Below are positions 2,297 through 54,063 of a stretch of 64,000 nucleotides of DNA, in pieces (positions within the stretch are counted from its first letter, which is position 1; each line of letters starts with the position of its first letter). The translations under genes were made by a program, and so were the position numbers. The stretch is from Podarcis vaucheri (lineage: Eukaryota), in assembly GCA_965113315.1 (NCBI GenBank), contig OZ220365.1, one strand, 5' to 3'. The notes beneath the pieces are model-generated. The model was not told the DNA's origin. It was given only the letters and a program-made list of their open reading frames with translations, and did not search any database.

Positions 2297-2381
2297 AGCC
2301 AGCATGCCCCATGGTCAGGAGACTATGGGGAATGTCACCCAGCAGCATCTGAATGGCTACATGTTCCTCATTCCTGTTTTC

Positions 2382-2691
2382 GAGAGCTGGTGTGGTATAG
2401 TGGTTAAGAGCGATAGACTCATAATCTGGTGAACAGGGTTCGCTTCCCCGCTCCTCCACATGCAGCTGCTAGGTGACCTTGGGCCAGTCACACTTCTTTG
2501 AAGTCTCTCAGCCCCACTCACCTCACAGAGTGTTTGTTGTGGGGGAGGAAAGGAAAGGAGAATGTTAGCCGCTTTGAGACTCCTTTGGGTAGTGATAAAG
2601 CGGGATATCAAATCCAAACCCCTCTTCCTCCTCCTCCTCCTCCTCCTCTTCTTCTTCTTCTTCTTCTTCTTCTTCTTCTTCTTCTTCTTCT
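2382..2691 (+). mobile_element. Squam3-type tRNA/CORE SINE with (CCT)n(CTT)n tail
   Basis: tRNA-like head with A box (TGGTATAGTGG) and B box (GGTTCGCTTCC), CORE-like GGTGACCTTGGGCCAGTCAC, microsatellite tail; near-identical copies at 7091 and 47431. Confidence 0.88.
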
Positions 2692-3303
2692 AACCATAGT
2701 TATTGACAATTCAAAGGTGACAGTGCAGCATGCTGGTGCATGCCACTGGAACTGTGGGCACTTTGCTGCTCCTGCATTTCTGCTATATTGCTGGGAGCTA
2801 AGTCACTTTTTGGTGTAGTGTTACGTCCAAGCCCAGGCTCCTGGTGCTCTTAGTTTTCTTCTCACAACTAAGTTGCTGTGGAGTGGCAGCCCCCTGGCTA
2901 TTTCCCCAGGCTATTTCCATCCTCCTAAGAATGCTTGTTGCTGCTGTCCTGGGGTGACTGTCTGTCATTCCCACTTACCTTCTCCCAATGCATCAGAAGC
3001 AGTGCCATTGTGAAAGGTCCTGATTAACCAAGCAGGCAGGCGGCCAGCCTAGGCCATACTATGTAGTGGGCATTACCAATGTGCATGGACAGCTCTACTT
3101 ACATGATACAAACTGCCGCTGCTTCATTGCAGCATTTGTTTGATCAGGCATCTGGTAGGCCATTTTGAGGATGGAATGCTGGACTAGATGTCTGATCCTT
3201 CAGGGCTCTTGCATTCTTAAGGTGGTGGAGGATTTACCTGTATGTGCCACATGACCTGTCCTGCACCACCTTAGTTAACTTGCTGGTCTCTGCTGCACTA
3301 GAT

Positions 3304-4137
3304 CAGTGTTTCCCAACCTTTTTTGGGCAAAGGCACACTTGTTTCATGAAAAAAATCTCGAGGCACACCACCATGCCAGATGGGGAAAGGTCACTTTTTA
3401 CTTATGTAAAAAAAATAAAAAAAAATAGTAACAGCATAGAAGGTAATGGTTAGGCTAGCATCCCTCTTCCAAATATGCTAAGTTTCTATTTGCAGGGACT
3501 GTTCTACATGGGAAAGCATTCAGCACTGTCATTCTCCCATCTGCCATCTGAATTGGTACTATTCTGGGTCAACTTACTCTGCTGCATGTGTAGATGAAAA
3601 TGGCACCAAGTGTGGGGGAGGGGGCAGAACAGGTTTCAGATACAGGATATTAAGCATACACGTACTTCAGATTGAACTAGTTGCTTGCTTTGCAAGTTTT
3701 CATTTCCCAAATGACTGCCTTGGCAAGCACAATACCTACCAGGCTCAACGCCGGTCTCGCGCTGCCGCTTCCCGCGCTCTCAAGGACCCGGGAGGAGGAA
3801 GGCGTGAAGGGAATCCCGAAGGCGCGAAAACCTCGCGCATGCGCAGGCCTTCCGCCTGCGACAGCCCAGTAGGCCGGCCAAAGCGAGCGGCGATGGGATG
3901 TGGGAGGGAGCTCGCTCGCCGCCCCGCGTGTGCCTATGTGGGGCACGTTACAGCCCCGTGACGTCAGTGCCACGCAGGCAGCCAGGCAGGCAGACGGCGA
4001 GAGCCCCGCGCTGGGCGGCCTCTCCTCGCCGCCGCCCCGCCTCTCGCCGCCCGACTCGCCCGCCTCCCTCCCACGGCACACCAGGCAACGCCTCGCGGCA
4101 CACTAGTGTGCCGCGGAACACCGGTTGGGAAACACTG
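3304..4137. mobile_element. Non-autonomous hAT (Charlie-like) element with CpG-rich internal cargo
   Basis: Perfect 15-bp TIRs CAGTGTTTCCCAACC / GGTTGGGAAACACTG; perfect 8-bp TSD CACTAGAT (3296-3303, 4138-4145). Confidence 0.93.
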
Positions 4138-5964
4138 CACTAGATGTTGAAAAGAGATTAAGCTGCTATTTTCTGTATATGGAAGGGGGAAGTGGCGCCA
4201 TCTTGTCTTTGCCTCAGGCAACAAAATATCATGGTCCCTCCCTATTCCCTCAAATTCTGTTTCTTTAATATTATTAATTGTTACCAGGTAGGCGATGGCA
4301 TGCCTGTGTAGTAGTTAGGGTAGCGACTGATTCTCTAATCGACTGGGAAGCTTATCTAAATATAAATGAGTTTAAAGCTTTTTGAAACATTTTTTCATGA
4401 ATGATTCCTATTTATAGCTACGTGAATACACAAGCTGGGGAAATCCTTGGTTTAAATCTAAAATTAATGTTTCTGACATTTAGTGGATCTCGCTGCTCCC
4501 AAGAAGTGTTCGACTAATATTTTATTTGGGTACCATTTATTGCTCCACGATTTAGTGGTCTGAGGCAGTGGGGTTGACCGAGGTTGAAGGGGAAAATATA
4601 TGTGCTGCTGCTGGAGGCCAGAATCTATATTAGAGTTCAGAAATACATTAATCTGCTTTGTATATAATCTTCATAAATGCTACTGTCAGTTCTCTGACTG
4701 GTCTAATTCTTAAGGCAAAGCAGTATCATCCATTTTATTTAGAGCAAGCTGATAGCAAAGCAATTATCAGCAAGTCATTTGGTTATGAAGATTATTTCAT
4801 AAGCCAGGGAACCAGAAACAAGCGTACTGTAACAGATTGTGAAAGGGAACTATTCAGAATGACCACAAAGTCATTGCAGATGTACAGCGGAGCATCTGTG
4901 CAACCTTCAGGCAGTCATTTATATACATTAGTGAAGCCATTGGTCTTAGTTTGATTTTTTTTGGTGGTATGCTAACACAAAGATTTATTGTGCCAAATAT
5001 TATTAAAATCTGTTTTGTACATCTGTCCATAAGATATTGAATTAAATAGCTAAATGTACAAGGTGTGTGCATTTCTACTCTTTGGAAGTAAGGTCACTAT
5101 ATGAATTTCTAACACAAGTCTTTCACAGAAATACTTTGTTGTTCTTTGTTCTTCCACAGGCTTTCCTCTTATCAAAACGATTCTCCTTTCCTTACCTACG
5201 AATAAATTTATACATTTGCTTTTCTTGTTGCCTTTGCCTCTATCATTCTTCTCTCCATCTGTTGTTTCTACCTTTATTGAAATTTAAATTATAGGTCCCT
5301 GTCTTTCTTGTTTGCGGCATGTGTTCAGGCATAAAACTAAGCTATATATCCATAGTTTTTTAAAAATAGCCATTCCTCCAGCAGGGAAACAAACCACTGA
5401 GCAGCTCGGTTACCATTATGTCTGAAACAGCAAACTTGTGGTTTGTCTTAGTGCAAGCAAATCACAATCTGAAGCCAAGGTTTGTTCTTGACTTCTTTTA
5501 TATATATATATATCCTTTAACATGGGAAAACCTAAACTGTATTCTTGATCATGGTAGGCTTGGGAGAAACAAAGCTTGAGCTCTGTTGGACATGGTGCTA
5601 AGTCAGCCACTTCATGGTTTGTTTCTCAGCTCAGCTAAGGGAGGAACACAGATTAATTTGCTTAATCATGGTTTATGACTTAAAGTTGTGGCCACTGGTG
5701 ATATTAGATAAACAAAGAATAAAATAAATTAATTTAATCACTGTAGCATGCTCTTTTGAGAAGAATTATGTAACTGATTAGTGCTCTTCAACATTCCTGC
5801 TGTCCAGATTGGTATTGTGCCATACTTCAACAGGCAATTAGGCTTTTGTTTTTGTAGTGCCCTAATATGGAGATTTATTTCTGGAGAGTGCTATCTCATT
5901 CCCCCCCCCAAAAAAAAATTTTGAAGAACCTGGGAGCCCTGTTAGGTCAGACCAAAGGCTAGTC

Positions 5965-6735
5965 TGTGGAGAGAACAATCTGGCTCTTAATACGGCTAAG
6001 ACCAAGGAATTGGTGGTGGATTACAGGAAAAAAAAGGCGGACATTCAGCCCTTGTATATCAACAGGGAACGGGTGGAGAGGGTGGCGGAATTCAGGTTTT
6101 TGGGAGTAGCTATCGATCAGGGCATGACTTGGAGCGCACATACCACTGCTCTGGTGAAGAAGGCCCAGCAGAGAATTTATTTCCTCAGACTTTTAAAGAA
6201 GAACAATCTGAGTGAGAGACTGCTGGTGTCCTTCTACCGAGGCTCCATAGAGAGCATTCTTACATACTGTATTTGTGCTTGGTTCTCCAGTTGTACAGCT
6301 AGGGAGAGGAAGGTGCTCCAGAAGGTCATAACCACAGCCCAAAGGATTATTGGTCATCCTCTCCCATCTTTGGAAGAACTGTACGGTTCCCGTTGTCTTA
6401 GGAAAGCAAATAACATCCTGCAGGATTCATCTCACCCGGGACACTGTCTGTTTGCACTACTGCCTTCTGGCAGAAGATATAGAAACATCAAGTCAAAGAC
6501 AAATAGACTGAAAAACAGTTTCTATCCAAGAGCTGTGGCCCTTTTGAATGCTGTAACTCGTTAGTGTGACCTGGGAGTTTGATGGGTGTGGTGTGGGTGT
6601 GGCTGGAATGTGGTTTGTTTGGTTGTTGTTGTCTTGCTTTTGTTGTTTTAAGGGATGGCATCCAATTTCGTTGCACTTTGTGCAATGTTGCACTTGTGTA
6701 ATGACAATAAAGAATCTATCTATCTATCTATCTAT
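5965..6735 (+). mobile_element. 5'-truncated Rex1/Babar-type LINE: C-terminal ORF, 3' UTR and (CTAT)n tail
   Basis: Open frame CGENNLALNTAKTKELVVDYR..KKAQQRIYFLR..SIESILTYCICAW..LPSGRRYR..NSFYPRAV, stop at 6564; AATAAA then (CTAT)n; CTAGTC at both ends (5959-5964, 6736-6741). Confidence 0.85.
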
Positions 6736-6829
6736 CTAGTCCATCAACCTTTTCCAGTAGTGAACAGCCAGATGCCTACAGGAAGCTAGATGTAGAAAAG
6801 GACTAGTGTAAGTGCTTATTCAGAAATAC

Positions 6830-6938
6830 CGTATTCCCTCATATGAACCTGTCCCTGCTATCAGACATGCTTGATAGGGACACAGAAGAGAGCCTTTTTG
6901 GTGGCAGCTCCCAGACTTTGGAACTCCCTTCCTAGAGA
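6830..6938 (+). mobile_element. Degraded L2 LINE ORF2 3' fragment
   Basis: GAGAGCCTTTTTGGTGGCAGCTCCCAGACTTTGGAACTCCCTTCC encodes a RAF.VAAPRLWNSLP motif. Confidence 0.6.
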
Positions 6939-14595: not shown

Positions 14596-14734
14596 CTGGG
14601 TTGGGGGACCTGTTGCCATCTAAACGTTATTGGACTCCTAATTCTCATTAGCCCCAGCCAGCATGGGCAATGGCCTGGGATGATGGGAGTTGTAGTCCAA
14701 CAATATCTGGAGGGCCACAGGTTCCCCATCCCTG
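14596..14734. mobile_element. Short palindromic hAT-type MITE
   Basis: Degenerate TIRs; internal inverted GGACTCCTAATTCTCAT / ATGGGAGTTGTAGTCC. Confidence 0.65.
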
Positions 14735-30827: not shown

Positions 30828-33548
30828 TATTACTATTAGTATTATCGACAGTAGTAGGTTTTTTTTTTTATCACCTTTCTGTCCACAAGAGCCCCCCATG
30901 GTAACATCTTATTACAATCCAAAGATCATTGACCTGATTTTAACTTATTTCCAAATAAGCATGCTTAAAATTGCACCACAAAGGTAGTATTCACAGGTGG
31001 GATTTAAATCATTTTATTTTTTCCTGCATCTGCCTAGAAATGTCCGTTTTATTTAAAAGCAAGTTTTCTTCTTCTTTCTATCCTGCTTCCGCAATATTCA
31101 CCATCATATGCACAGATGGTGGGAATGGGGCTCAGTGGTCCTTTTAGTATAACATGTGAAAAAAGGGGCTGCATACACTATTCATAGCCATACTTCTTGC
31201 AGCGTTTCATCTTCCCGGAAATGGAACAATTTAAATTTTCTAAACCCCAGAAAATTAAAACAATTTGTTTACTCAATATCATTTCACTTTTTACTTCCTT
31301 TGTCTTCAGTGTGAGATGGGAAAGTTAGCTCCTGATCGCTTGCTGTGAAAACTCTTATGGGACAATTTTTCTCAGACAATGTTTAATTCTGACATCTTGG
31401 CCAGATTCCAGTCTGGATAATTGCCCTCTGTTTTTTGATTCTCTAAATTCTCCCCAAAGTTTTGGATGGATATATTATTCTTGTTTGCATCTGTCCTGAA
31501 CTGAAATGTCCCCCACATTGCATTCTTAAACGGTTGCTACTCTCCATCCCAGAGGTGGTTTTGCTTCAGCGATGGGTGAAGTTAATACTGTCTGCCTGTC
31601 TCTGAAATAAATCAATAAATTCTGCAATGTGCATTGTGCTCCTTTGGGCTGAATAGGTTCTTAAAAATATATATTATATCCTGTTCTTAAAATGTAAAAA
31701 CGGAAGGAAAGAGGACCATGGGGCCACTTCCAGGGGAAAGCTGTAATACAAGCACACAAATGTAGTAGCACTGCATTTCCCTGGGCGTGTATAGTTCTTT
31801 GCACTTTCTTACGGCTTCCCCCTTCTATAGACAGTGAAGTGGGGGAACTGGAAACCTTCCTTCCTAACCTTTTTACAAAGCAGCCTACAATATCAGTGTC
31901 TCTGGATATTTTGGATCCCTTTTGCATAATACTCCAGGGTGGCTGATCTTTGGAAATTGTGGACCCACTCCATTTAAATGCAGCACTCTTGAGATTCCTT
32001 ACGCTCAATAGAGCTCTATCCCACTGGTTAGGAGGAACAGGAGGTCTGTGGCGTTCTCCCCAATCCACATCCAGCCTTCCCTTCTGATCCAGTGCCAGTG
32101 CATGAGTAACTTGCACCAAACAGTGGGAGAGAGCTGAATGGGGGTATACAAGGCGCAAACATAATGTGTGCAGGATCATGCACACTGTTAATTTTTCTGT
32201 GTCATTAGATCTGGAAGCAATTCTGGAGCTCTGTTATTAGTTAGTATAACTGTACATAAGTAAATTAGTTGGTTCTTTCCCACGGCCGGTCACCCCTGCA
32301 GTGTTTTAAATGGTGGACATAATTTTGCACCTTTCTTCATAAGATTTGGGAGGAACTACAGTTTACGTTTTTTTAGCTGTGAGTGGTAAAGAAGCTGAAG
32401 AAAAAAACATATTCTTATACCTTAAATGACAAAGATTTCTTTCAGTAGTATGGTAAAGAATTCTTTTCACTAGACATTTATGCTCGATTGCCAAGTGGTT
32501 TCCTACACACTTGAAACCTTGTGCGCCTTTTCTGACTTTAAAAGCATCCTTGGACTAATGTACAATTACTGTAATATCTAGTTTGGCTCAAAGACACTTG
32601 GTTTCTTGTTTCCAGATTCAGTACCACAGAAATCATAACATGTAAATAATTTATCAGATCAGCTTTCATTTTCCCCCTGGCCTAATAACTTGGTTTCCAA
32701 TAAAATGTGGACCACTATGAATAAACTATGCATGGATATTATATTTTTGATTTGGACCATGTCAGTTAAGATGTGGTTAGAAGGTTGCAGATTCTTTTAA
32801 ACCAGTGGAAGCTGGATTCCTGCCCTGACTTCCCTGGGAGCCAGTCTAGGGTTGGGTGACATTCCTCAATACAGTGGGCTTGGGGCTGAGGGGGGGAAGG
32901 GGAGAATACCCCCAAATTGGGCAGATAATTTTTCCTAGTGGGGCTCCTGCTCATTGAAGGTGTCTCTGTCTGATTTTTTTGAAACCCCCACTTTCACCTC
33001 AGCCCCCTGCATCACAGTGACCTTCTAACCAACAGTGAAAGGTTTTCGGCTGATGGGTGAAAAGGTTCCTAAAGGGAAGAGTGGGCTTCTACTAGTTCCA
33101 TTCTTTGGGCTTTTCTCTGGATCTCTGTTAATACTCGCCATATTACCTGTCATATTTAGAGATAAACATCCAATATATTCTTATTACATGAATGTGCATT
33201 TTTATAGGCTTTGAATTCCAGCCTTCCATAATTTTATTAAGCTCTTCTAAGGTGTTATCCCCATTGTGTATTATAAACAGGTAGCTTTAAATAGTATTTT
33301 CTGAGAACTGATTTGAAGAATGAAATCAACCCAAGTCCTCTTCTGGGTGACACAAAACAGACAATCCAGCCACCTGCTTTGCTATTTTACAAATCTTCGG
33401 ACATCTTTTAGTTCCAGGCTTTTGAGCTATCATTCACACAACATTTGCAGAGTTTGGCAACAATACCTGATGGTGAGAGGTAGCAATCAACAAATAAAAT
33501 GGTACTATGCCTCACATTTTGTATCTTTGGTGTTGGAAATATATAGAC

Positions 33549-33685
33549 CAGGGTTTCCCAAACTTGGGTCTTGAGCTGTTTTTGGACTACAATTCCCATC
33601 ATTCCTGACCACTGGTCCTGCTAGCTAGGGATGATGGGAGTTGTAGTCCAAAAAACAGCTTGAGCCCTGAGTTTGGGAAACCCTG
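33549..33685. mobile_element. Palindromic hAT-type MITE
   Basis: TIRs CAGGGTTTCCCAAACT / AGTTTGGGAAACCCTG; 8-bp TSD ATATAGAC/ATCTAGAG (2 mismatches). Confidence 0.88.
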
Positions 33686-33774
33686 ATCTAGAGTGCAAAT
33701 CTGCCATTGGGCAGACATGAAGATGTTGGTGGAAGTTTCTGTTCACCCTTTGCTTTATGTTGCCTCCTCTAAAG

Positions 33775-33911
33775 ATTTTGACAAGTTAAGTGAAGAAATG
33801 AAAGATGGTCTTGGGCACCTTTCAAGGACTCTGCAGTTGTATCTGAAAGTGGAGATCCAAGAAGCTTCTCAGCTGCCACCTGCTCTAGATATTCTTCAGA
33901 CCTTCGCAAAA
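33775..33911 (+). CDS. SMYD3: SMYD3 coding exon (human exon 5 equivalent), I-SET region
   Basis: AAG| ... |GTAAGT; 137 nt; (N)FDKLSEEMKDGLGHLSRTLQLYLKVEIQEASQLPPALDILQTFAK versus recalled human ..EEIQDASQLPPAFDLFEAFAK. Confidence 0.95.
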
Positions 33912-35459: not shown

Positions 35460-36096
35460 TGTTATGTACTGAAGTTCTCACCCTGGGCCAGCAGGGGGAT
35501 ACTGTAGATAGTTCAGGTCCACATATACAGTGGTGCCCCGCAAGACGAATGCCTCGCAATACAAAAAACTCGCTAGACGAAAGGTTTTTCCGTTCGCGAT
35601 TTGCCTCGCAAGACGAATTTCCCCTATGGGCTTGCTTCGCAAGACGAAAACGTCTCGCGACTTTGTTTCCTTTCCTTTTTCCCTTCAGTTTTTGAACTGC
35701 TCTTTACAGTATGTGTGACTTTAAAGAGCAGTTAATAAACTGTTGTTGTACCAAATTTGGCTTTGTTTTGACTTTTTTTGACCATAGGAACGCATTAATT
35801 GATTTTCAATGCATTCCTATGGGATTTCGTGCTTCGCAAGACGAAAAATTCGCTAGACGACAAAAATTGCGGAATGAATTAATTTCGTCTTGCGGGGCAC
35901 CACTGTACAAATAAGGGATCGAAAGTGGCGGTCAGTGATTGGATAGTTACAGAAATGGTTACAGTTACGTTGTACTGGAGCTCTATATAAGCAGGCTGGC
36001 TGAACCCTTCAGTTCAGTTCTCTTCTGGCCTCTGAATAAACAAGAGCTGTTTAAAGAATCGCCGTGTCGTCTGATATGTTCACCCACAACCTAACA
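35460..36096 (+). mobile_element. Solo LTR (same family as 19873-20136) interrupted by a MITE
   Basis: TG...CA ends, perfect TSD CTGTA; colinear with the first copy once 35528-35905 is removed. Confidence 0.92.
35528..35905. mobile_element. Tc1/mariner (Tigger-like) MITE nested in the LTR
   Basis: TIRs CAGTGGTGCCCCGCAAGACGAA / TTCGTCTTGCGGGGCACCACTG; TA TSD. Confidence 0.93.
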
Positions 36097-36212
36097 CTGT
36101 ATACTTTAGAACTCAGTGGGATCCACTGAGAACTGTGCTAACTATCTGCATAGCCCCACCCTCGATTCAATTTCTGGGTGTAAAAGAAAGATGAAAACAG
36201 CTTTTACATATA

Positions 36213-36454
36213 CAGTGGTACCTTGCTTCTTGAACTTAATCTGTTTTGGGAGTCTGTTCAATTCCCGAAACCATTCAAAAACCAAGGCACGGCTTCTGAT
36301 TGGCTGCACTAGCTTCCTGCACTCAAGCGGAAGCTGTATCGGGTGTTCGGCTTACGAAAAACGTTTGCAAACTGGAACACTTACTTCCAGGTTTGCGGCG
36401 TTCGGCAGCCAATTTGTTTTGCAACTGAGCGATTTGGGAATCAAGGTTTGACTG
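36213..36454. mobile_element. Tc1/mariner (Tigger-like) MITE
   Basis: TA-CAGTGGTACCTTG ... CAAGGTTTGACTG-TA. Confidence 0.82.
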
Positions 36455-36633
36455 TAATTTGATGTGTCTAGGTTGTCACTTGTTGAGATGCATCTGTTGT
36501 GTTTTAACTATTTTCCAGGTTTTCTTCTTGCTATTTAAACACCGAGTTGATATAATTTTATTAAGCATAATATTCTGATAAAAATGATTTGTGTGTAGCT
36601 ATGGAAGTCAACCTTAATGAATTTCATTTTTCC

Positions 36634-36849
36634 AGTTACAGATAGGTAGCCGTGTTGGTCTGCCATAGTCAAAATAAAAAAATTCCTTCCAGTAGCACCT
36701 TAAAGACCAACTAAGTTAGTTCTTGGTATGAGCTTTCGTGTGCATGCACACTTCTTGTATCTGAAGAAGTGTGCATGCACACGAAAGCTCATACCAAGAA
36801 CTAACTTAGTTGGTCTTTAAGGTGCTACTGGAAGGAATTTTTTTATTTT
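36634..36849. mobile_element. Penelope-like element remnant: inverted pseudo-LTR pair forming a perfect palindrome
   Basis: Arms 36671-36756 and 36764-36849 are exact reverse complements (86 bp, 7-nt loop); typical PLE end motifs GGTAGCCGTGTTGGTCTG, GCACCTTAAAGAC, CACGAAAGCTCA. Confidence 0.85.
36757..36794 (+). ncRNA. Minimal type I hammerhead ribozyme motif (Penelope-type)
   Basis: GTAT-CTGAAGA-A-GTGTGCATGCACAC-GAAA-GCTC-ATAC: conserved CUGANGA and GAAA boxes, helix I GTAT/ATAC, helix II GTGTG/CACAC, palindromic AGCT helix III, CUC cleavage triplet. Confidence 0.72.
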
Positions 36850-38462
36850 CATTTTTCCACTTTGCCGAAAAACTAAATGCAATGAAGATAGTCTTTTCAA
36901 AAGAAGTGTGCAAGTGTGCAGGTCTTACTATACTTCACAAAATTACTTTTAATCAATTTTCTGTCATTTTTTTCATTTATGCGTCCAGTGTCCACTATTT
37001 GAATTTTTTATTTTGCTGTTCCTATGTTGTAACTTGTATGTTCCTTTAAGGGGAATAGCTTGGGCATGACCAGGGAGAGGCCTATGGAGACATCTTTTTC
37101 TGAGTGATGGCAAAAGTGATGGCAACTGGGTTTTCCTGCTCTTTTCTTCCTTTTATTTTCAGCTTGTAAAAGTAGAATTTAGTTGGTTGTAAGCAAAGGA
37201 AAAGAAATCTTTGTTACAGAAGTCAAGCTTACAGGAACCATCAGTCCTGTTAAGAAGACTTAGGCTGTTGCAGTATTGTGTATTCACTATACTATGTTTA
37301 ATATACTGACCTGCTTTTTATATGAATGGCATGGAGGTTTAAGGCTCATTAAGTCATAGAGAGCAATTTATTAACTTTTGAATGAACAAAAACAAGGAAG
37401 ACTATCTGTGAGAGAAGTGAAATCCCATGTAGCATTTAAAAGATATGTTGTGAGTTTTACGTGGTGCTAGATGGACTCATGGTTTTTTATGAATGTAGTA
37501 CTACCAGTATGTGATATCCTGTTGTAATATTGTTTTTCTGACTTTGCAACACATTCTTTTAAAGTTCACTGGATGCTTGCTGTAAGCCTAGCCTCCATTT
37601 TTTCCTTTCTGATCAATCAGAAATTGTAGAAAGCTACAGTTGAAGGTCAGTCATAATCTGTTTGATGCTGTAACTTCAAGAACAAGAAGGATGAGACAAG
37701 AAGTCAAAATAGAAAAACAAGCAGACCTTCACTAAGGTGACTAATTCCTGACATTTTCTAGAAAGAGATTCTAATGAAACTGGCTTTAAAAAAGTAAAAA
37801 TTGGCTCCTTAATTTGCCCCTGTGCTCAAGAGAGTTTTGATCAGATATGACCAGAGGCTAAAATCAGTTTTGGAAAATATATTTGAAACACATCCACAGA
37901 AGGTCAGTGAATGCATTTCAGTTTATGAATATCAAAGAGAAAGCAAAGGCACATTGTACACAAATGAATGTTGTGGAAGGGAAAATACAAGGAGCAGTGT
38001 ATGCAGGTGAAATAAAACACAATGATTAAATGGAAAAGCAAAACAGAATATGAATATGCAATCTTTTAAAAATCATCTTTATTATTAATTAACATAGACT
38101 ACACACAATTGAACACAAAAAACCAAAACACAAGCACTAAGTTGCTTCTTGGGGCCTTCACCTTTACCATGCATGAGTTAATAGTACTTTCTTTTCTTTG
38201 TGCCCTTGTTATCCACAGCCTAAATTATTACAAGTCTAGCTCAGTTTTATTGTTAAAACAACAAGGTCATCACAGAGCTCAGAAATAAACTGATTTCAGG
38301 CCACAGTAATAAAGCCTTATTAAGAATAGGTGGTCAGCACAACAATTTTTGTTTGCACATGGGAATTCCCCTCCCTGGCCTCTGTGCATTGCCCTCCAAC
38401 CCCCCAAAAATCTTCTCTGGTGGGTTGAGGGGAAGTTCTGATAAATAGCCAGAAGTTAGTGA

Positions 38463-53946: not shown

Positions 53947-54063
53947 CAGTGATGACCAAACTTGGCCCTCCAGCTATTTTTGGATTACAACTCCCATCAT
54001 CCCTAGCTAACAGGACCAGTGGTCAGGGATGATGGGAATTGTAGTCCCAAAACAGCTGGAGGG
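53947..54063. mobile_element. Palindromic hAT-type MITE lacking its right TIR
   Basis: Left TIR CAGTGATGACCAAACT; internal palindrome; CCCTAAGG at both flanks. Confidence 0.75.

Follow-up and report, generated by a model that had tools for sequence, protein, structure and literature searches.

The palindrome in the SMYD3 intron of the 64,000-nt stretch of DNA analyzed here (the window) is very probably the footprint of one recent insertion, in which two short pLTR fragments of a high-copy Penelope-like element (PLE) were placed head to head within a 13-bp target-site duplication (TSD) and the hammerhead motif was carried along as a likely inert passenger. The insertion belongs to a family whose parent encodes a reverse transcriptase (RT) and a GIY-YIG domain in one ORF. 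One arm only bears a tail, the TSD encloses both arms, the site is empty in other samples, and head-to-head pairs are common within the family.

The feature is larger than the original prediction had it. That prediction described a hairpin with arms of 86 nt each at 36671-36756 and 36764-36849, which are indeed exact reverse complements separated by a 7-nt loop; it missed a 36-nt tail at 36635-36670 and the 13-bp TSD. The insertion proper measures 212 bp (36635-36846), to which the target duplication is added; the left copy of the duplication (36622-36634) is identical to the right copy (36847-36859), and the sequence is single in the empty allele. The PLE tail is on the minus strand, accompanies the inverted copy only, and corresponds to where the parent ORF begins: at a full-length copy of the element, locus L127, the ORF starts at 3882, directly after the pLTR, and the tail in the window corresponds to its first codons. 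The same 36-nt tail follows the same 3' end in many other copies. In longer copies the tail runs on for 4 more bases, which match the target at 36631-36634 and which, judging from this match, are a possible priming microhomology. The inverted pLTR fragment, or antisense arm (36671-36756, minus strand), is truncated 3 nt inside the hammerhead core; the CUG is missing from the minus-strand mirror, as had been stated, and so is the 5' strand of helix I. The direct pLTR fragment (36756-36849, plus strand) has no tail and begins at the 5'-end hot spot of the family; it overlaps the inverted copy by 1 base and the right TSD by 3 bases.

Other repeats occur in the window. An element with perfect 24-bp inverted ends lies at 35526-35907 and presumably resembles Tc1/mariner. 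Just upstream of the palindrome, at about 36206-36450, lies another high-copy repeat whose left end is similar. MITE-like hairpin repeats at 33544-33690, 53973-54056, and 14623-14707 gave Rfam mir-5408 matches below the gathering score.

Folded as RNA, the hairpin reached -152.4 kcal/mol (z -28), and none of 200 shuffles folded as well. Every part of the claimed hammerhead was present in the window where it had been placed. The minimal type I motif spans 36757-36794 on the plus strand and consists of a 4-bp helix I (36757-60/36791-94), the core CUGAAGA (36761-67), a 5-bp helix II (36769-73/36778-82), GAAA (36783-86), a palindromic helix III (36786-89; AGCT in the DNA, AGCU in the RNA), and C17 at 36790, after which cleavage is predicted. 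It had been overlooked that the A at 36768, which separates core positions 9 and 10.1, is unpaired. The assignment to the minimal type I class with a palindromic helix III held when the coordinates were compared with the available portion of PMC4209133; the class traits present are the conserved core, helices I and II, the extra base between 9 and 10.1, G10.1-C11.1, and the palindromic helix III. An Rfam covariance-model search of the window returned no hammerhead family at E <= 1; this minimal form has no real helix III. At the cleavage position, 36790, a C-to-T change accounted for 15-28% of the family-wide contig depth in four runs, and the full-length copy L127 has a T at this position. 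Both C and T are tolerated at hammerhead position 17.

The Penelope origin put forward in the original prediction is supported by the RT and GIY-YIG ORF of the parent, the pLTR, the tail, and the TSD. Counted as exact-pattern matches, the 35-nt core (36761-36795) has 9,083 copies in the 1.6-Gb genome, compared with 0 for a reversed control, and the genome-wide count for a 26-nt piece from the 3' end is 12,784. Longer copies contain a GIY-YIG domain upstream of the same hammerhead motif, and a protein search revealed many near-identical coding copies, with at least 151 matches when the best 150 of 2,639 candidates were scored. Locus L127 contains an uninterrupted ORF of 910 aa (3882-6611) with an RVT_1 match (E 3.3e-12) and, at the C terminus, a GIY-YIG match (E 3.3e-5; 24.6 bits, the cut-off being 22.6). 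This locus is a partial tandem in which 2333-3881 repeats 5352-6900 at 99.8% identity with the hammerhead motif in both, and its pLTRs are 96.7% identical to the window arms. The second long-frame locus, L128, has an 880-codon open frame without a start. The hammerhead sits in the pLTR, with the parent ATG 93 nt after C3. Because the L127 ORF is uninterrupted and its repeats are 99.8% identical, the family looks recently active from its sequence. The L127 translation also contains a CX4CxxC motif in the RT-EN linker; a CX2-5CxxC linker motif defines the Neptune type in the accessible text of PMC8557442, and the linker motif, taken alone, points to a putative placement in the Neptune clade.

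Tandem forms of the pLTR piece were also observed. At L115:1041-1504 (G000:C1:5631940-5632403), five units of the same piece form a head-to-tail array with a spacing of 101-104 nt, each unit beginning 6-9 nt before the core, and shorter tandems occur at L029 and L079. The same-strand tandem hammerheads of the L115 array could dimerize in a retrozyme-like manner.

The age of the insertion was examined by comparing contigs of four runs (X1, X3, X4, and X5) over 36100-37400. In X3 (organism B), X4 (organism A), and X5 (organism C), one contig each joined 36621 to 36847, and this empty allele retained a single copy of the TSD. The recent origin that had been proposed is thus supported, the site being empty in 3/3 other samples. 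Contigs in general show presence and not absence, but the unbroken contigs suggest that X3, X4, and X5 lack the filled allele. X4 carries the species label of the window (organism A) and comes from a different sample and study; over about 800 aligned bases it showed 10 positions that differ from the window, and it is therefore possibly another lineage. In X1 (organism A), a contig starting at 36826 carried the filled right junction with zero differences; X1 is perhaps the assembly's own sample and is therefore not independent. A host-domesticated ribozyme finds no place in this comparison, in which the orthologous site was empty in all three other samples (organisms A, B, and C), and the empty sites are evidence against a maintained switch.

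With respect to the host gene, a coding exon of 137 nt at 33775-33911 (plus strand) matched residues 131-178 of human SMYD3 (E 5e-9), and its donor site is present. The motif is therefore on the SMYD3 sense strand, as had been claimed, 2.85 kb into the next intron. The claimed distance of about 2.8 kb after exon 5 is borne out as a distance; the exon at 33775-33911 is presumably exon 5. Two more SMYD3-like exons, matched via short motifs, are presumably present near 22.4 and 28.3 kb. Searches did not locate exon 4, and exon 6 was not found in the 180 kb downstream in a weak search with short motifs. In the next 180 kb, three further insertions of the family occur about 69, 136, and 170 kb beyond the window end (G000:C17); two are head to head, and one has an intact motif on the plus strand.

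The folding results bear on whether the ribozyme would cut. Helices I and II are predicted for a 51-mer folded in isolation. In the whole insertion, the pairing probability of helices I and II was 0.0, and forcing them cost 51.8 kcal/mol, so that sequestration by the upstream arm, an element of the original prediction, is supported as a prediction. Helix III consists of no more than a palindrome of 4 nt, whose self-duplex is predicted at -3.9 kcal/mol, and a partner is therefore needed. The window holds one core match and thus no second sense-strand motif for a dimer; the next intact sense-strand motif lies about 163 kb downstream, and none was found before it. The dimer requirement of such hammerheads is reviewed in PMC6765202, as far as its excerpted text goes. 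In the available part of PMC4209133, a single minimal hammerhead of S. mansoni showed no detectable cleavage and dimers showed little. According to the accessible part of PMC11167929, the hammerhead of an Anolis PLE cut only with the protein of the element, insertion proceeded normally for its core mutants, and the cleavage site showed no RNA-seq ends. The excerpt of a retrozyme preprint (10.64898/2026.07.22.740005) held nothing specific to add. Under the folding model, the hammerhead in the insertion is likely inert; transient or in-trans dimer cleavage may occur, given the intact core and the two helices predicted for the 51-mer.

The intact core on the sense strand and the caging predicted by folding would also fit a self-masked switch, in which the hairpin cages a working ribozyme until editing or a helicase releases it to cut SMYD3 pre-mRNA. 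However, the site is empty in 3/3 other samples, the same layout recurs at about 1,000 other pattern matches, neither the window nor the 163 kb after it yielded a dimer partner, and the published monomer was inactive and the dimers weak (PMC4209133, available text). We consider such a switch extremely improbable.

To determine how common the mirror form is, a natural pLTR copy was aligned to loci of contig C1 drawn from the match lists of the 35-nt core and the 26-nt piece. Pieces reaching the 3' region below 5.34 Mb were kept, giving 122 pieces in 76 insertions; the loci L115-L116, beyond 5.34 Mb, were dropped, as were pieces whose match was confined to an internal repeat of the reference. 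The sample represents one end of contig C1 and is partly biased to core-bearing copies. Among these 76 insertions (C1:0-5.34 Mb), 42 were head to head, 33 were single, and 1 was of another form. The tail was on exactly one arm in 38 of the 42 head-to-head insertions, and in 39 a direct repeat of at least 8 nt occupied the two outer ends. Helix I retained its 5' strand on exactly one arm in 20, on both in 12, and on neither in 10. Genome-wide, a tight palindrome pattern matched 316 loci, and patterns placing the hammerhead front end directly behind an antisense arm gave 386 + 696 matches, with a few loci counted twice. The exact junction of the window insertion is unique in the genome. Palindromes are thus the commonest sampled form of the family (42/76), and we found no support for anything special to the SMYD3 locus. 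With 42/76 head to head and roughly 1,000 caged front-end matches genome-wide, the locus has the ordinary family structure that the original prediction had named as its deflationary outcome.

The absence of mismatches between the arms had been attributed to recent origin or arm-to-arm conversion, and the first of these stands. Among arms of at least 70 nt, 55/102 were identical to the window arm and the mean difference was 1.2%; youth therefore suffices and conversion is unnecessary. Perfect pairs made up 7/27 (26%) of the palindromes with 65-100-nt arms, compared with about 29% expected from youth alone, and we rejected conversion as unnecessary on this rate. Derived variants shared between paired arms were rare (3 shared, 46 private), and conversion is therefore without support. 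The perfect match of the arms could also be taken to mean that the palindrome arose after insertion, by replication fold-back or arm-to-arm conversion, or that it is an artefact of assembly. This account has next to no credence in our view: one TSD surrounds both arms and the tail is one-sided, as in most sampled pairs; both arms equal the family majority sequence, and therefore there is no shared derived change needing explanation; and the X1 contig, possibly from the assembly's own sample, holds the filled right junction without differences. An assembly artefact in particular is unlikely, given the TSD, the tail, and the X1 junction contig.

A perfect 86-bp duplex on the transcribed strand might instead be a relevant source of dsRNA, as an ADAR hot spot or a precursor of endo-siRNA or miRNA, with effects on SMYD3 or the element family. 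A rotifer is reported to have small RNAs derived from Penelope copies (PMC3846280, in the portion available), and Rfam searches with the hairpin gave matches to miRNA models. These matches were the only ones and were all sub-threshold, the best scoring 55.6 against a gathering score of 90, and any long hairpin scores in this way; the matches were rejected as generic on this ground. Moreover, the insertion is absent from the other samples, and one copy among very many adds little. Some incidental A-to-I editing is possible, as on any long intronic duplex, and a selected role is not plausible; we regard a relevant dsRNA function as highly unlikely.

A single PLE insertion, the reading that we prefer, could have proceeded as follows. 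The endonuclease of the element would make a staggered cut in the target, and cDNA would be synthesized at both ends on uncleaved pLTR RNA, or a single cDNA would be copied back. Short microhomologies with the target would be used, of 4 nt at the tail end and 3 nt at the opposite end, and head-to-head joining of the two 5' ends would take place at the 1-base overlap. Copy-back or antisense self-priming has been proposed for PLE insertions (PMC3846280, accessible part). Derived variants were seldom shared between arms (3 against 46 private), and therefore two cDNAs and copy-back both fit the data. Chance would decide which arm keeps the hammerhead front and the orientation in SMYD3. In SMYD3 pre-mRNA, pairing of the arms in an 86-bp hairpin is predicted to keep the ribozyme from folding, and the hammerhead, with no nearby dimer partner for helix III, is predicted not to cut.

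The 5' ends of the sampled pieces mark a fixed RNA landmark of the family and bear on the mechanism of PLE integration. Of 122 pieces, 37 had their 5' end at -7 to -3 from C3, whereas the 100 nt upstream accounted for 14 (binomial p 8e-38). A further 31/122 formed a broader group at 0 to +21, in and around helix II, and none of the 122 pieces had its 5' end at the cleavage site (+29 to +31). A TATA-like box is located at -37, 30 nt before an Inr-like A at -7 (L127:3750-3800). Since the pile-up lies about 30 nt after the TATA box, the short copies may represent almost the whole cDNA of a short pLTR transcript. This position can also be read as a putative splice acceptor. In the excerpted sources, the D. 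virilis intron ends at helix I (PMC4209133) and the D. virilis promoter is said to lack a TATA box (PMC2377424). We tentatively suggest, at somewhat less than an even chance, that the short copies are near-complete cDNAs of a ~130-nt RNA from a TATA/Inr promoter in the pLTR and not random truncations. In the same joint reading, the hammerhead would be the first ~40 nt of that RNA, and only uncut RNA would be inserted; the partner arm would mostly stop in the self-complementary helix II, and the ribozyme helices would steer the building of the mirror insertion. If this is true, the roughly 1,000 caged copies in the genome would be a ready data set on the mechanism of PLE integration. Among the literature titles listed, none was on this particular Penelope-like family or its 5'-end pile-up.

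The SMYD3 locus is of little importance, being a young, unshared transposon footprint that is at most a presence/absence marker. The family has some value, in that it is very young and has intact-looking ORFs and thousands of junctions. Had a self-masked ribozyme been conserved within a chromatin-regulator gene, it would have amounted to a new regulatory device, but neither conservation nor uniqueness was found. Intronic hammerheads of amniotes and the CPEB3 HDV-like ribozyme are self-cleaving, lie on the intronic sense strand, are single-copy, and are conserved across species. The window motif shares the sense-strand placement in an intron with these conserved host ribozymes, whereas it is high-copy and absent from close relatives.

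The closest known systems are PLEs themselves. EN+ PLE insertions with an inverted pLTR, a one-sided tail, and a TSD are published (accessible parts of PMC3846280; PMC8557442, Fig. 2 legend), and the layout of the insertion is this already published structure. Like Pen2a_Av and other EN+ PLEs in the available portion of PMC3846280, it shows a head-to-head inverted pLTR, a one-sided tail of 30-40 bp over the ORF start, a short TSD, a TATA and Inr-like motif in the pLTR, and an empty allele with a single TSD copy. Unlike those elements, it has no internal ORF, both copies are cut to 90-120 nt, the TSD is 13 bp compared with 8-10 bp in the rotifer examples, and copies number in the thousands.

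The motif resembles the minimal hammerheads of metazoan PLEs (Cervera and De la Pena 2014, PMC4209133, in the part available) in its core, 4-bp helix I, pLTR location, G10.1-C11.1, palindromic 15.2-16.2, and unpaired base between 9 and 10.1, the last being described there as a conserved trait of these hammerheads. The same text reports similar motifs in a turtle and snakes and already notes opposite-strand pairs, which in Schistosoma are 100-700 bp apart. Compared with the Schistosoma motifs (PMC4209133, same part), helix II here is 5 bp with a self-complementary 4-nt loop instead of 7-8 bp, and the mirror copy is truncated and directly abutting. Similarly, the Poseidon element PAc of Anolis carolinensis (PMC11167929, excerpted text) is a reptile PLE with a pLTR hammerhead and a tail. 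The ORF of PAc starts inside the hammerhead, whereas the ATG here lies 93 nt after C3 and the CX4CxxC linker is of the Neptune type. Uncleaved RNA is the main insertion substrate of PAc in that account, which matches the complete lack of 5' ends at the cleavage site in the present family.
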